A DNA stretch of 63,390 nucleotides, filler included, from Licmophora abbreviata (lineage: Eukaryota), in the NCBI GenBank assembly GCA_900291995.1. It is 8 parts of 8 records of this genome, joined end to end, with 100 filler letters (N's around TTAATTAATTAA, not from the genome) between each part and the next. Parts side by side here need not be neighbours in the genome. Positions count along the whole stretch, not along the records: positions 26,780 to 35,888 come from OLMU01003480.1; 7 more parts are not named here. One strand, written 5' to 3'. This document shows, in pieces, positions 27,937 to 35,988 of this stretch. Under the pieces are notes generated by a model. It was not told the DNA's origin and did not search any database. It worked only from the letters and a program-made list of their open reading frames with translations. How positions within the stretch are numbered: the stretch's first letter is position 1; every line of letters begins with the position of its first letter. The position numbers were made by a program, and so were the translations under genes.

Positions 27937-28986
27937 CTATGGATGTATGGACACGTATTTTGCGAGCTGTCCCAGAAACTTGAGATCGGATTTGGTAAAA
28001 GCGGCAAGCAGCTGATTCGATGTCATCATCCAACACTGGCTGTCGGTGATGCGTTGCAACACTACACATCTCGTGTCTATCGTGGCGTCTCCTTCCCCGC
28101 CACCGTCACTGCTCGGGGACAGTGCTTGTGCTGCTGGATGCGTCAAGGGCAAGGACACACGCCCACCGGTGGACTTGCTCAGCGTCTCCAGTGCAGCCCG
28201 GACTCCTTCGCGTTGCACTGTAGGGCTTGCGGAGCACGGAGTACTTCCCAGTCGATAAAGCATTGGATCATCCGAATCCAACAAGAGCATGTGAGTGGCA
28301 GGCGTCATTGATATAAACGAGGCAGCAGCCCACTGTACTCGTTCTCGGTAGTCGTCGTCCGATTGAATAGCTGCACTGGAATTCTTGGACCATTGTTGCA
28401 CCAATGCGGCGTCCAGCTGGGGTGGAGAGGACGGAGGCTTACTGCCTGATAGAGTAGGAATCGTTACAGCCCCCATAGCACTGTCGGCTTTGCTAAATTC
28501 AATCGCCGCCTGCAACAGCAGCACAAGTGAATACCCAACAGCGAGGGTTTCCGACAACCCAATTGTACTGTCAATGATACCATCACTCCCATCCTCACCA
28601 CTTTGACTTCCAAGAATCCGATTCAAGGCGGTCAAGATCAAGACGACTCCTCCAAACAGCAAGCGCACACGAGGACCTTCTAATCCTGGAACGAAGAATC
28701 CTGACCCTCGTTCAATGGCGGCTGACGGACGAGCATACACGCCCTTGTTTTTCTTTTTGTTGCCGCTGGCGTTGTTCTTCTCGGCGTAGAGGACTGTAAA
28801 GGTGCGTAGACCACCTGTAGCACCGAAACCTAGCTTTCGTCGTCTCGTCATTTGTGTAGACGATCGAAACGCTCGTGACGGCGAAAGGAGGAACGGCGAT
28901 CCTATCAACACGGCCATTGTCAGGGTGAACAAGATGGATGGATGATGTAGCACCGCGAAGCGTCGCTGCTGTCGTCTGAGATGCAT
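27937..28986 (-). CDS. Cofactor assembly of complex C subunit B (CCB2/CCB4 family), plastid
   Basis: Bipartite presequence (..SRA-F); 'FFVPGLEG..RL..G...L...NR'; two TMs; C-terminal 'AFTKSDLKFL..LA' like the CCB2/4 tail. Confidence 0.7.
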   Translation of the reverse strand: MHLRRQQRRFAVLHHPSILFTLTMAVLIGSPFLLSPSRAFRSSTQMTRRRKLGFGATGGLRTFTVLYAEKNNASGNKKKNKGVYARPSAAIERGSGFFVPGLEGPRVRLLFGGVVLILTALNRILGSQSGEDGSDGIIDSTIGLSETLAVGYSLVLLLQAAIEFSKADSAMGAVTIPTLSGSKPPSSPPQLDAALVQQWSKNSSAAIQSDDDYRERVQWAAASFISMTPATHMLLLDSDDPMLYRLGSTPCSASPTVQREGVRAALETLSKSTGGRVSLPLTHPAAQALSPSSDGGGEGDATIDTRCVVLQRITDSQCWMMTSNQLLAAFTKSDLKFLGQLAKYVSIHP

Positions 28987-29380
28987 TTTTACTGATTCGT
29001 TTTCGAGGCTCCCTCTTTCTTGGTTGCTCGCTGAGCAGAATATCCGATGAGTCTTCCACCCAGAGGCCCTGCTATGATGTAGCAACAACATCATCGTCTG
29101 GAGCAACCCTGATGGCTCATCGTCACACACACACACACGCTCAAACTTCGAACTCCTCATCAACGCGATCACGCACGCGCTTGTGTTCGCGCGCGCCCGG
29201 CAAGAGAGATATTGAGTGACGTCGCCTGAATCTCGTTGACATTTTTCAAATCCGTTTTGCCAACCGCCAAATCCCAAATCTGCAAATTCGGCTTGCACGA
29301 TATCATACAGGCGGGGGCGATGCTGCTGTGGCCTCTCGATCGTTCTGTGTCTCTCATCACTTTGCTTTTCTAAACGAATA

Positions 29381-30585
29381 ATGAAGGCACGTTCATCAAG
29401 CACGCGTCGATCGCCAGCTCAGACGCGTCGCCGGCTAATGCTATGGAGTCCGTTGGCGGTATTTTACGCGATAATTGCCTTTGTCGCCGCGGTTCTGATG
29501 CTTGACGCTTCCAATTTCTGTAGCAGACTTGGCGGAATAGATGGCATGATTCAATCCAATCTTACCGGTGCTCCAACGTCCGCATCTCCACCCTCGAGAC
29601 CAACCATGCTGCTAGGAATCTTCAGCACGCATGCGGAAGTACCACGGCGACAGTACATTCGAGACACCATGTTGAATGTTTCCGACGATCCTCGACTGTG
29701 TCCGCTTCACTCCTATCTCGCTACCTCAAACACTTCTTCGACTGTTACCGATGCCTCGTTGCACTGTCAAGTCCTCTATGCCTTTATCGTCGGCGGCGGT
29801 GGACCAACGTATGCGAATCGCAATACACAAGCTACCAATCTCTCGCGAATAGTTCTTCCACCCACAGATGAGTACGACGAGCCGGACGTGGTGCGCCTGG
29901 CTATCAAGGAAAACATGAATACGGGCAAATCACCCACTTACTTTGCGTATGGTGCATTGTTGGATCGCGAGTTGCGAGGATCGTCACGACACATTGACTA
30001 CGTCGCCAAGATGGATTCGGACAACTTGATGAATCTTCGGGCGCTCGGCGACTTTCTAAACGACTATTTGGTGCCTTTTGATGCTGCGCAGTACCGACCA
30101 ACCTTCGGTGGTATGATGTTCGATTGGATGTACTGTGGTGGACATGTACATAAGCATTGCAATGATCTTGCCGGTCGAGTGTACATGTCGGGTGAGTGTG
30201 TTTTGAAGCTCGTTAACACTATACGCTTTGCTATCGTGAGGAACAATCTGGCGTCGGTCGCGCCAAAGCTCATTCTACGTTTCTTTCGCTACGCACAGGG
30301 GCATTCTATTTCATGAGTCAGCACTTGGCTCGACACGTCACGTCGCCCGATGTCGACACGCAGCACTTTGCGAAATACGAAGACATGGACATGGGCATGC
30401 GAGTTGCTACCTTTACTCAACCAGTTTCCTATGTTGAGTTCAACACGGGCATGTTTTGGAGACACGGGCTCAAGAAAGAAGAAGCCTTTCGTGACTGGTG
30501 GAATAAGGGCGAGGAAGGGAATTCGACGGAAGCGTATTGGAATGGATGGGGTTCGTGGAGGAAGGACGGTGGCGGACTGGGATAG
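29381..30585 (+). CDS. Glycosyltransferase family 31-like (beta-1,3-galactosyltransferase type), 2 exons (intron 30192-30298)
   Basis: Type II TM; 'RRQYIRDT', 'ENMNTGKS', DxD 'VAKMDSD', 'YMSGAFYFMS', 'EDMDMG'. Confidence 0.8.
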
Positions 30586-30786: not shown

Positions 30787-33700
30787 TTATCTCACAGTCT
30801 TTTCATCGACGACGACGGAACTCAATCCGTTATGCTTGACGACCTCGTCTATTCGATCAAAACTTTCTTCTAGTTCCTCTGCGGCCAGATCCTGGAGGAT
30901 GAGAATTATGGTAGTAGCCGAAAGGCCACTCCTGCTTGGATCGCCTTCGCTCCCGCCTCTTCTCAGCAATTTGCGAAGCAACGCGCCCACTCGAGTTCGG
31001 CCTGTCCTGTCCAGATGAGTGAGGGGCTCATCAAGCACTATTACGGACGGTCGAAGCTTGCCTCTCCTTGCCACCAGATCGGCGAAGCCCAAGCTCATAG
31101 AGAGCGAGCATCTTCGCCACTGCCCTCCTGACAGAGAAGAAAGAGGTCGCTCAACTAGACTGCCATCCGGACCCCGGACGTAGGCGCGACGAGAAATTCT
31201 ATCACCACTGTCTAGCGATAACTTGAGAATCTGGTTGCCATCACTTAGCTCGTCCAGATAGGATTGACAAGTCGACTCAATCGCTTCGACGGCATTCTGT
31301 AAAAGAAACGTTTGGACGCCACGTTGACCAAAGATTTCAGCGAGGTCAGACATCGTCTTGGAGAATCCAGACAGAGAGCTGCCCTCTGCCTCCATATTCC
31401 TGAGATTCTGCTCGGCATCTCTGACGTCGCGGCACAGATCATCGTAGGCAGCACGTGTGAGGTCAACAGTGTCGCGGCCAGCATGCAGAGCGCATGTTTT
31501 CGCCTCGATCTCTGACTCCATTCGTAGCATTTTCGACGCATCCGATAGCTCAGCTGAAAGGCGTAATTGATGTTGCCGTGAGTCATGCAATTGCCGCTCT
31601 GCTGCCTCAAAGCGAGCGGACCATTCGGATTCGGCCGCTTTGAGTTCCATGGACGCGGAGGCGACTCGCAGTTCCGCAGCGTCGGCTTCAGCGCTAGCAG
31701 CATGGAGTGCCATTGTTGCCTCTGCATGCCCATCCTGAGACGCGTGTAAGTTCTGCAAGGCGTCTGTGATCTCTGATTGCATTGTACGTCGAAGCTGTTC
31801 CTGTGAGTGGCCATCTCCGTCTCTTGTGATAGGCTCCTTACAAGTCGGACACTTCTGTGGTGTTGTAGGAGCTTCTTTAGACGTCATGTCAATGGACCAT
31901 TTAGTCTCAAGTTGTCCCTGGCTTTCTTGGGACATCTCAAGATTCAATACAGCACGATCGAATGACATTTGAGCTAACCGCAGTTGCTCCCTAGCTGTGG
32001 CTAGAGTGGTCGATGCTTCGTGGTAGGAATTTTGCGTGTGCAACACAGCACCGTCGCGATCTTTCGACAGAGCCAAAAGCTTTCTTTCTAGCGTCGCAAC
32101 GGTACTTGTTGCCTCTTGCAGAGCATCTTCAAAAGAATCCACATCCGTAACCGGCGATGTAGGTACTTTGCAGGTCATTCGAAGCTCTTCGATCTGCCGT
32201 AGTTGTTGTCTTTCCTGCTCCTCAAAAGCAGATAGCTTGGCGTCGGCCAATTGTTGTGCTGAGTCGCGGCGACGGGACAAATCTTCGACATCCTTTGTCC
32301 GTAACGCGACCATGCCTTTCACTTCTGATGCTTTCTTGGCGGCCTCGCGAGATCTCTTGCGTGCTGTGAATGCGCAATTCTGCCAGAGTGAGAGGGGGAC
32401 AAGGAGGGAAAGCTCTTCTTTCAGCGTTGCGTCGGTTGCTTCCAGCAGTCCATTGACCCCGTGTTGACCATGAAACATGGATCGAGCAAGCACTTCAGGA
32501 CTCAAGTGAAGTGTTTCATCTATGACAGTTTGAGTCTCTTTGATCGACTGCATCGTGAGGTCCTCTTCACCTAACTGGAAAGAAAGAGAACCTTTCGACG
32601 ATGTCTTCGTCCTAGAGAGTACAAACGACACCCCATTGAATTCACCATGGATCGTGACCCGAGCAGCCTACACAGTTTGTAATATGGTTTCAAGCCTGCG
32701 CAGTGAGCGTAGAAAGTGTCGCAAAGGGAAAGATGATGTCAAGAGTCAACATACCTTTGACGAATCGTTTACGACATCGGATACCTTGAAGTCCTGTGCC
32801 GGCCGAGGATCGACCGACCCTGTCAGAGCCCAGAGTGTCGCCATCGCCAGAGATGATTTGCCACTACCGTTGCTGTGCGTACACGCAAACAACGAAAATG
32901 AATCAGTGAACAACTACGGGGAAGGTCCCCAAGCAAATGGACGAAATATGTCGACTCCGTACCTGTCCGATCCACCATCCTTATTGGTTCCTCGAAGAAG
33001 AACCAACCCACGATCAAGAAGAGGATAGGTCGTCTTGTGTTTGAAAGGTCCGAATCCTTGTATGGAAACGGATTCAAGCACGAAATCGGTCGCGATATCG
33101 GAGGAGTCGACGATCGTCGATGCCTCACCCGATACTTCCAACTCATCAACGAGCCGGAGCCCCTCTTGAAGTAACTTTTCGGCTGTAGTGTTGGCCATAG
33201 CTTCGCGTCGCACTTCTTCAGCGAGGAAAGCCGCCAATGCAGTGGGGGGCGTCATTTCTTCCAGTAAGCTCGAATCTTCAGCGGGTCCGATCCCCATCAC
33301 TTCAGTTGGCACAGACGTAACTTCTCGTACTTCCACCAATGCGCCTACCTCTCGCAGAGCCTTGACCTTAGCATCGAATTCTGTCAGATCACCTTCCTTA
33401 GCAGATCGACGAGCTTCCTCCAGATCATCCTTTGCGACCGACACAACAACGCGGTCGCCGGCACGAACGCCGAGTTCACTTCCGATGCACGTATCGACGA
33501 CACTGCCATCTTCAGCACATTGACTAGCACCGCTCCGGAAGGCATGCACATGGAGACGTGTAAACGCGTCCAGAGACAAGGGACGAAAGTGCTTTCGTCC
33601 AATCTGCAATGGAATCTTCTCCACACACTCCCAATTCTGTCCAGCGTCCAGCATCCACAGAGCTTTTGGCTGCTGTGCTTCAGCCAGTGATGTCTCATAT

Positions 33701-34914
33701 GGCGATCCAATGTAATGAATTTTTATCGCGCCTGATTTGACCTCATGCGGTTTGTGAAAGTGGCCCGAATAAATCGGACGGCCCGTCGGGAAGCAAGCGG
33801 GAGACACGCCTCCCGTCGACACGATCAAATCGTTCATGTAAGCTCCAGTCACATCGGCATGCACAAAGAGTGCCGAGGAGTTCATTGCGGCAGTAGAGCA
33901 TAGAACCGATTCCATGACGGCAATGTCACGAATATGCGGGACAAAGAGCGCCTTGCGAAACATCGTTGGATGTGAAAAGATGAGTGGTCCGGGCACGGTT
34001 CGTCCACCATCATCATCATCACCGTCGAGCTCGACCTGATAGGCATTTTCCAGAGGCGTAAGCCCGTGGTCGTACCCGCTCAATGTGATTTGATCATGAT
34101 TACCTGGGATCATGACCATGGGTACTCGCCACGATCGAAACGCTTCGAGGACAGCATTCAATACATTGATACGGATTACTGCACGATGGTGCCAGAAGTC
34201 CCCCAAGAACAGTACTCCCGCATTCCTCTCGACTGCAGCGCGATGGACAGTTTCCAAAACTTCCAGGCACGTGTCAAGCGACGAAGGGGCACAATGCAAA
34301 TCGGTAAACACGATCCACCTGTCCACCGACGCGTGGTGGGCGCACTGCTCCATGTACAATTGATGTCGTTTGTTCTTCACGGCATCAGCTCCTTGACTCT
34401 GTACTAGCGCGGAGTCCAAATCGACAATAATCGGAGGAGATGACACCATCGTCTGCGTGCTATTGCTTGTCTGTTGTCCTAATTCGGTGGTTTGTGTCGC
34501 AATTCGGACCGGCTCCTCGGATTCTGGGCTATGCTGATTGGTCGGCGACAATGAGAGCTGCTTGCCGCGCACCTTGACGATTTCCTCGCCCCCGGTCGAC
34601 GAAAGTCCGACAGAGTACCATCCACCACCCCGCTTCTCTTTCACGATCCCAGATATTGTGTCCCCGTTCACAGTGAAAAGTACCTGGTCTCCTTCGTCCA
34701 GCGGGGCAGGCGCCATTCGCATCCTTGATAATGACGACGACGGGTGTGCTCGGCCGCGTGTGCCGAGTCTGAAGGGAACACCATTAGCGACACCCACTGT
34801 TCTTTGCAGCAAGCGAGTCTGCAACTGCCAGGATCGCCCCAGACGAAACGAAGTCGCTACCACGAGGACAGCCACAAAAGTTGAACGCGCGTTCCATCGG
34901 CTGTATCCATTCAT
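30787..34914 (-). CDS. Fused SbcD/Mre11 nuclease - SbcC/Rad50 ATPase (~1316 aa) with organelle-type presequence; introns 32873-32962 and 32668-32754
   Basis: Metallophosphoesterase motifs DLH, GDFWH, GNHD, HAD, SGHFH. Then 'IQGFGPF', Walker A NGSGKSS (in the small exon), Q-loop, coiled coils, hook CPTC, signature LSGGQ, Walker B VIVLDEPLTHLD. Both splices keep the frame. Confidence 0.9.
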
Positions 34915-35888: not shown

Positions 35889-35988
35889 NNNNNNNNNNNN
35901 NNNNNNNNNNNNNNNNNNNNNNNNNNNNNNNNTTAATTAATTAANNNNNNNNNNNNNNNNNNNNNNNNNNNNNNNNNNNNNNNNNNNN
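35889..35988. other. Artificial contig-join spacer
   Basis: N44-TTAATTAATTAA-N44. Confidence 0.97.

Follow-up and report, generated by a model that had tools for sequence, protein, structure and literature searches.

A probable organelle-imported, single-chain Mre11-Rad50 type nuclease encoded by the diatom Licmophora abbreviata, and its mirusvirus-like relatives

Enzymes of the Mre11-Rad50 (MR) and SbcCD type operate by an M2R2 clamp cycle. They are nuclease-ATPases which cut hairpins and blocked DNA ends (Yoshida 2011, PMC3175470). Fusions of Mre11 with Rad50 are already in print for a moss-diatom-prasinophyte group, with members such as Phaeodactylum tricornutum B7FXD6 and Micromonas, and the same paper proposed a viral origin for them and called their distribution sporadic (Yoshida, Claverie and Ogata 2011, PMC3175470). 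Here we describe a gene of this kind from Licmophora abbreviata, located on the minus strand of the window, the whole 63,390-nucleotide (filler included) stretch of DNA that was analyzed (assembly GCA_900291995.1). Like the fusions in the main text of Yoshida 2011, it has the same domain order, a non-canonical tree position and separate canonical genes in its genome. Its product is probably a DNA-end nuclease of the SbcD-SbcC (Mre11-Rad50) type that is encoded in the nucleus, made as a single chain and imported into an organelle; we infer its location and activity from sequence.

While the fusion itself was known, apparently new are a conserved leader, a wide family with a mirusvirus-like sister clade, a small beta-barrel and an H-loop glutamine. 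The barrel, the H-loop change and the mirusvirus link were found here and are not mentioned in the main text of Yoshida 2011, which is also free of plastid, chloroplast, organelle, transit or signal peptide wording (PMC3175470). No organelle assignment or mirusvirus link for the fusion was found in the literature covered, which excluded subscription journals and key supplements, and the organelle-enzyme papers that were checked do not mention an SbcCD/MR-type nuclease. The closest conceptual parallel is plant MSH1, likewise a repair enzyme of organelles that is encoded in the nucleus and stands apart from the canonical clades, and, in the available text of its description, common to plants, stramenopiles, alveolates, cryptomonads and large viruses (bioRxiv 10.1101/2020.02.13.947598). 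MSH1 belongs to the MutS family and has demonstrated dual targeting and function, whereas those of the MR fusion are read from sequence. As the processing of broken ends and hairpins in plastids and algal mitochondria is poorly known, the fusion is of interest as an apparently single-copy candidate for a DNA-repair enzyme of organelles that has gone unnoticed in many algae and some land plants, and whose closest relatives found appear to lie in marine mirusviruses. It occurs in tractable models (diatoms, Ostreococcus, moss) and would add to the organelle genome machinery with viral affinities already exemplified by MSH1, Twinkle and POLRMT.

Gene structure and domains

The gene runs from an ATG at 34914 to a stop at 30787 and encodes 1316 amino acids (aa) in three exons. 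Intron 1 (32962-32873, 90 nucleotides (nt), CAG/GTACGG...CACAG) and intron 2 (32754-32668, 87 nt, AAG/GTATGT...TGTAG) are both GT-AG introns with lengths that are multiples of three, and each contains an in-frame stop, so that splicing is needed for the full-length protein. The open-reading-frame track had split the gene, and the initial annotation joined it by two introns and a small exon carrying Walker A; this model came out on top of 336 open-frame GT-AG models scored with a homologue profile (186 bits versus 171 for the runner-up). Exon-only reading frames from other diatoms terminate at the identical two splice positions, and three transcriptome-derived diatom homologues are continuous across the intron region with identical spacing. 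Single-intron models without exon 2 lost Walker A in 24 of 24 cases. Exon 1 extends from the nuclease through the first 40 aa of the ATPase (its first strand); since the nuclease-ATPase junction already lies within this exon, the fusion is independent of splicing, and two separate genes are ruled out. One spliced gene for a single-chain Mre11-Rad50 type protein is thereby confirmed at the level of the gene model. Only one copy was found by genome search. A single RNA run covered 7 of 30 bins and neither splice junction, and was too sparse to judge expression. The features of the gene, all on the minus strand, are as follows.

32963..34914, minus: exon 1, with leader, beta-barrel, nuclease, capping domain and linker, and the first 40 aa of the ATPase
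34849..34914, minus: predicted signal peptide, aa 1-22, cleavage ATS/F (alternative GRS/W after aa 28), by hydropathy and motif heuristic
34708..34848, minus: transit-peptide-like stretch, aa 23-69, by leader heuristic
34543..34704, minus: small SH3-type (Tudor/KOW-like) beta-barrel, aa ~71-124
33580..34323, minus: SbcD/Mre11-type metallophosphoesterase nuclease, aa 198-445, motifs DxH/GDxxH/GNHD/H/GHxH
33085..33579, minus: capping domain and helical linker, aa 446-610, from homologue-model secondary structure, with a putative role after Yoshida 2011
32873..32962, minus: intron 1, 90 nt, GT-AG, at a position common to other diatoms
32755..32872, minus: exon 2, with Walker A (aa 652-657)
32668..32754, minus: intron 2, 87 nt, GT-AG
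30787..32667, minus: exon 3, with Q-loop, coiled coil, hook and C-terminal ATPase lobe
31840..31851, minus: CPTC zinc hook, aa 963-966
31012..31134, minus: ABC signature LSGGQ (aa 1202), Walker B with its glutamate (aa 1234) and D-loop
30889..30900, minus: H-loop ILQD, switch histidine replaced by glutamine (aa 1282), by block alignment

The intact nuclease and Rad50-type ATPase, the short arms and the CPTC hook described in the initial annotation were borne out in full. All five phosphoesterase motifs are present in the protein, with motif II in the GDxxH form also described for Mimivirus R555 (PMC3175470), and the ATPase, which starts at aa 611, contains Walker A (652), Q-loop (756), CPTC hook (963), LSGGQ (1202), Walker B (1234) and D-loop. 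At 311 aa from Walker A to hook and 239 aa from hook to signature, its arms are intermediate between those of E. coli SbcC (~466/445 aa) and T4 gp46 (249/182 aa). Nuclease and both ATPase halves were found in 100 of 101 long homologues, transcriptome-derived diatom proteins among them, and a CxxC hook in 99. The Walker A lysine, Q-loop, LSGGQ, Walker B glutamate and D-loop are near-invariant across homologues. For the Cylindrotheca homologue, an AlphaFold model (pLDDT 84.7, pTM 0.54) had the same domain layout, and the model's best Foldseek matches were Mre11-Rad50 complexes.

The fusion has in common with E. coli SbcCD and T4 gp46/gp47 the nuclease motifs, a split ABC ATPase and a CxxC hook, but differs from them in its single chain, import leader, barrel and H-loop glutamine. 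With nuclear Mre11-Rad50(-Nbs1) it shares homologous folds, although it gives no Mre11_DNA_bind Pfam match. A genome search recovered a separate canonical Mre11 (82.8 bits, above the cut-off) as well as canonical Rad50 pieces encoded elsewhere, with a CSAGQ signature in place of the LSGGQ of the fusion. The proposed distinction from the nuclear complex is upheld by these genes and by the missing Pfam match, with one tree test, given below, not rejecting a grouping with the nuclear proteins.

By analogy with described MR enzymes, two chains would pair through their ATPase heads and zinc hooks to give an M2R2 architecture from one gene. ATP-bound heads would clamp DNA ends, inverted-repeat hairpins or cruciforms and protein-blocked ends, and the metal-dependent nuclease would cut the clamped DNA, feeding recombination repair of the multicopy organelle genome. 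A single chain would require one import event, which is a plausible reason for retention of the fusion.

Leader and predicted destination

Leaders were tested with a heuristic of our own rather than with SignalP or ASAFind, which called for an h-region, then small-x-small followed by F or W at the cleavage site, then a transit-like tail. The test set consisted of Met-started, barrel-bearing proteins with a leader of at least 30 aa (53 homologues and the window protein, 54 in all). A hydrophobic core was present in 39 of these 54 stramenopile-type leaders and the full pattern in 25, as against a mean of 3.2 and a maximum of 10 passing leaders in 300 shuffles. The leaders are also distinct in composition from the adjacent linker, with an acidic (D/E) fraction of 0.024 versus 0.150 and an R/K content of 14% versus 6.5%. 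The viral sister set served as a natural control, and here the nuclease begins within 25 aa in 115 of the 119 proteins among those listed. An h-region followed by a conserved aromatic residue at +1 is the hallmark of diatom plastid proteins (PMC4494062, available text). These sequence data support a conserved signal-plus-transit leader of the diatom bipartite plastid type, and the organelle-type presequence of the initial annotation was retained. In the fourteen named green, red, cryptophyte and Chromera entries the first 45 aa contain 0-4 D/E and 3-12 R/K, and the named green and red leaders are transit-like, basic and poor in acidic residues, mostly with no hydrophobic core.

The leader of the window protein (69 aa) contains 11 R/K and zero D/E. 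Cleavage had initially been placed at GRS/W, after residue 28, a site comparable to the A/W and G/W sites of other pennates; ATS/F, after residue 22, is an equally good or better fit, and both are possible. The signal and transit peptides would carry the protein over the four membranes of the diatom plastid, and delivery to the mitochondrion may be added in certain lineages through a second Met or a leader that reads ambiguously, so the substrate would most likely be plastid DNA and perhaps mitochondrial DNA too.

Barrel, H-loop and alternative functions

Two features had been missed by the initial annotation, a 54-aa beta-barrel and the histidine-to-glutamine change in the H-loop. The five-stranded barrel lies upstream of the nuclease, folds at a pLDDT of 85 and is present in 83 of 101 long homologues; it was undetected in named green, red or Chromera members among these 101 and in all 120 viral homologues listed. 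Its modeled structure points to a small SH3-type (Tudor/KOW-like) fold. The comparison with the PHF19 Tudor domain gave Z 9.1 and rmsd 1.4 over 53 aligned residues, with PWWP and NusG KOW tied (Z 9.1-8.3), and cyanobacterial NdhS was resembled about as well as KOW and PWWP. Foldseek returned no match for the barrel at E <= 0.001, and atlas leads were all at or below 0.83, under the 0.9 threshold, with top rows tied and no single subfamily favored. Speculatively, the barrel might aid nucleic-acid or nucleoid binding.

In the H-loop, the switch histidine typical of SbcCD/MR-type ATPases is glutamine in the window protein (aa 1282). The glutamine motif was found in 89 of 101 algal homologues, while histidine was found in 119 of the 120 viral homologues listed. 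By block alignment, glutamine occurs in green algae, Agarophyton and ochrophytes, Chromera has proline, and histidine is kept in all phage, viral and bacterial rows, nuclear Rad50, Cyanidiococcus, Galdieria, Capsaspora and seven unassigned rows. The fusion family thus adds a natural H-loop variant. Slower or retuned ATP hydrolysis is one speculative consequence. By analogy, the change may also be neutral, given that ABCC1 with an H-loop glutamine retained wild-type-like transport (PMC7756269, available text).

Several observations tell against an organelle role of the proposed kind and have to be set beside the evidence above. The leader test was heuristic and was failed by 29 of 54 leaders, and 30 of 83 barrel-bearing homologues were excluded from it because of a short or non-Met N-terminus. 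No signal peptide was found in Hanusia, Chromera and several unassigned stramenopile-type members, the wider clade includes the plastid-less Capsaspora, whose N-terminus is acidic, and the H-loop substitution may, as noted, be without effect. With respect to the destination, a second Met lies at most 16 aa before the cleavage site in 16 of the 25 passing leaders, compared with a background of ~26%, an expectation on the low side given the abundance of Met in hydrophobic stretches. Dual targeting to plastid and mitochondrion, both by a second Met and by an ambiguous leader, is known from diatom aminoacyl-tRNA synthetases (Gile 2015, PMC4494062, available text), and several members have amphipathic leaders without a signal peptide. 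It is therefore plausible that plastid-only targeting is too narrow a reading, and that dual or mitochondrial targeting occurs. That the mitochondrion is the sole or main site, with the signal-peptide-like segment bypassed or ambiguous, is improbable, as the aromatic +1 residue after the h-region is conserved, the window protein has no Met between residues 1 and 65, and every named member of the algal clade comes from a plastid-bearing organism.

We see a similarly small chance that the working form starts at a Met just before the barrel and serves in the nucleus or cytosol, either as a back-up to Mre11-Rad50-Nbs1 or as a captured viral nuclease against foreign DNA. Many predicted homologues do begin at such a Met, the barrel is similar to chromatin-reader Tudor domains and the N-terminus of the Capsaspora member is acidic and unlike a transit peptide. 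These starts, however, probably reflect for the most part prokaryotic-style gene calling or contigs that are cut short, leader composition and the signal peptide followed by F or W are kept across diatoms, the sole motif resembling a nuclear localization signal is one weak basic cluster, and the barrel matches KOW, PWWP and NdhS about as well as Tudor. An ATPase-dead or scaffold variant, with a nuclease no longer coupled to ATP hydrolysis owing to the H-loop change, would agree with the glutamine motif in 89 of 101 algal homologues as against histidine in 119 of 120 viral homologues and in all phage and bacterial rows, and with the association of H-loop deviations with degenerate ABC sites (PMC7756269). 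Such sites usually lose the glutamate too, and glutamine is tolerable at this position according to the available text of the same source; with the Walker A lysine, Q-loop, LSGGQ, Walker B glutamate and D-loop all near-invariant, we regard such a variant as unlikely. An organelle-imported, ATP-driven DNA-end nuclease remains the reading we prefer.

Relatives and origin

The nearest named relatives of the window protein are pennate diatoms. Named members of the family comprise many diatoms, Chromera, Agarophyton, Chlorokybus, Volvox, Chlorella and Raphidocelis, with Mesostigma, the lycophyte Diphasiastrum, Chloropicon, Ostreococcus, the cryptophyte Hanusia, Galdieria and Cyanidiococcus as further named members (10 names among 20 proteins looked up). 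While Yoshida 2011 described a sporadic distribution, and the initial annotation likewise took the fusion to be rare, the homologues recovered here from red and green algae, a lycophyte, a cryptophyte, Chromera and ochrophytes indicate a gene which is widespread among algae.

A viral scan located a fused homologue on a 372-kb contig, adjoining a eukaryote-type RPB2 and Erv1. This viral protein as query gave 243 matches, and the best 120 listed were mostly fusions of 1000-1070 aa. Neighboring genes were pooled over the flanks of 83 partly redundant loci, the markers named here do not occur together on one contig, and scanning of the 219 neighbors covered 81 of 142 shared clusters and 138 of 215 singletons. 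The pooled neighbors included RPB2 (5 loci), Ras (12), histone (3) and M16 peptidase (3), and single genes for a terminase, Herpes_UL92, heliorhodopsin and polB. These neighbors match markers described as enriched in mirusviruses by Gaia 2023, in whose source data the shares for mirusviruses versus Nucleocytoviricota are 66.7/0% for UL92, 51.4/0% for terminase, 54.1/1.6% for H3 and 60.4/1.7% for M16. No capsid, A32, VLTF3 or D5 family of nucleocytoplasmic large DNA viruses was seen in the 219 neighbors, with the partial coverage given. The contigs of the sister clade are thus probably mirusvirus-like, with a capsid unseen in the partly scanned flanks. The fusions that they encode make up a large mirusvirus-like family of natural single-chain MR enzymes, of use in structural work. 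Tyrosine-integrase-family genes were observed on two mirusvirus-like contigs (L186:2407-4227 and L202:6512-8320), and genes for SecY/Sec61-like protein, Hsp70, GAPDH and a sugar transporter on others. A phage gp46-like ATPase gene at L059:5587-8715 has its N-terminal lobe split by a ~0.8 kb insertion.

Trees were inferred from 80 hand-picked rows and 586 columns under LG+G4, without Mimivirus R555 and P. tricornutum B7FXD6. Mirusvirus-like, Capsaspora, unassigned and algal sequences formed one clade (100/100), within which the mirusvirus-like sequences grouped alone (100/100) and the algal with the unassigned sequences (97/85, including diatoms, Ostreococcus, Chlorokybus and the lycophyte). 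Green algae (100/99), red algae with secondary-plastid lineages (94/97) and ochrophytes with Chromera (99/95) were also recovered. A quick tree under a mixture model retained the whole clade (100), the mirusvirus-like clade (100) and the algal plus unassigned group (95). The union of algal and mirusvirus-like sequences was found in the nuclease-only tree (SH-aLRT 99) and, after removal of a partial nuclear row, in the ATPase-only tree (100/96). Outside this clade came a phage-like fused clade (100/100), then split phage pairs and T4. In the free trees (LG+G4 and mixture quick) the fusion stood apart from canonical eukaryotic Mre11/Rad50.

Three results run counter to this picture. The red plus secondary-plastid group is missing from the mixture-model quick tree; in the ATPase-only quick tree, a half-filled long nuclear row falls inside the clade, with support of 36; and a constrained grouping of the algal sequences with the genome's own Mre11/Rad50, represented by one partial long-branch row, was not rejected (approximately unbiased test, p 0.08). 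A grouping with E. coli/Streptomyces SbcCD was rejected (p 8e-5). Thus, of the bacterial or viral origin first considered, the viral part gained support from the mirusvirus-like sister clade and the link to these SbcCD was lost, and separation from canonical eukaryotic Mre11/Rad50 is seen in the free trees but not enforced by the constrained test.

As the deeper sampled branches are all phage or phage-like, viral donation appears to be the simpler reading of the transfer between virus and host, and mirusviruses are indicated as gene-exchange partners of early algae. Our best reading is a virus-type lineage, common to mirusviruses, which red and green algae already had at an early stage and which was handed down to the red-plastid lineages. 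The same function could have another history, in which mirusviruses gained the fusion from an early eukaryote, or in which both received it from a bacterium missing from the sample, for instance the cyanobacterial ancestor of plastids. The algal and mirusvirus-like clades are sisters with neither nested inside the other, Capsaspora and five leaderless sequences branch between them, and Cyanobacteria were outside the direct searches; with fusions nearer and split pairs deepest among the phage branches, and the SbcCD sister position rejected, we consider such a history a serious but somewhat doubtful possibility. The five leaderless fusions beside the algal clade (P0272, P0277, P0285, P0286 and P0292) keep the H-loop histidine and, if viral, would argue for virus-to-alga transfer; the source of P0285 and P0292 was not found in the viral contigs searched. 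The nuclease query had no match in 301 genomes from a single bacterial class, 151 from a single phylum and 5 individual genomes, a search made with no positive control. A GTDB pattern scan gave at least 23 matches, all with weak Walker B, and plasmid and cultured-phage matches were only ~25-32% identical.

Returning to viral donation, we offer tentatively, as a scenario somewhat less likely than not, a so far unrecognized, phage-derived fused organelle Mre11-Rad50 of algae and early land plants, donated by an ancestral mirusvirus near the red/green algal root and passed into secondary-plastid lineages, retuned by the H-loop glutamine and given a Tudor/KOW-like module in ochrophytes, with an independent mitochondrial recruitment of a related phage fusion in dictyostelids. 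The dictyostelid fusion, from Acytostelium subglobosum (P0357), has an acid-poor, mitochondrial-looking leader and groups with the phage-like fused clade (100/100), outside the algal clade, which suggests a second, independent organelle recruitment. Capsaspora owczarzaki (P0363), a plastid-less opisthokont, is a long-branch member of the algal plus mirusvirus-like clade; its N-terminal extension is acidic and 370 aa long.

In the window, the gene adjoining the fusion (27937-29418, minus strand) gave a weak CCB2/CCB4 match (E 0.005, below the cut-off). It has a plastid-type leader with an SRA/F site, like that of the fusion gene, and no functional link between the two is evident. A run of Ns with a short TTAA-repeat spacer occupies 35889-35988, ~1 kb upstream of the fusion gene, which is itself uninterrupted.

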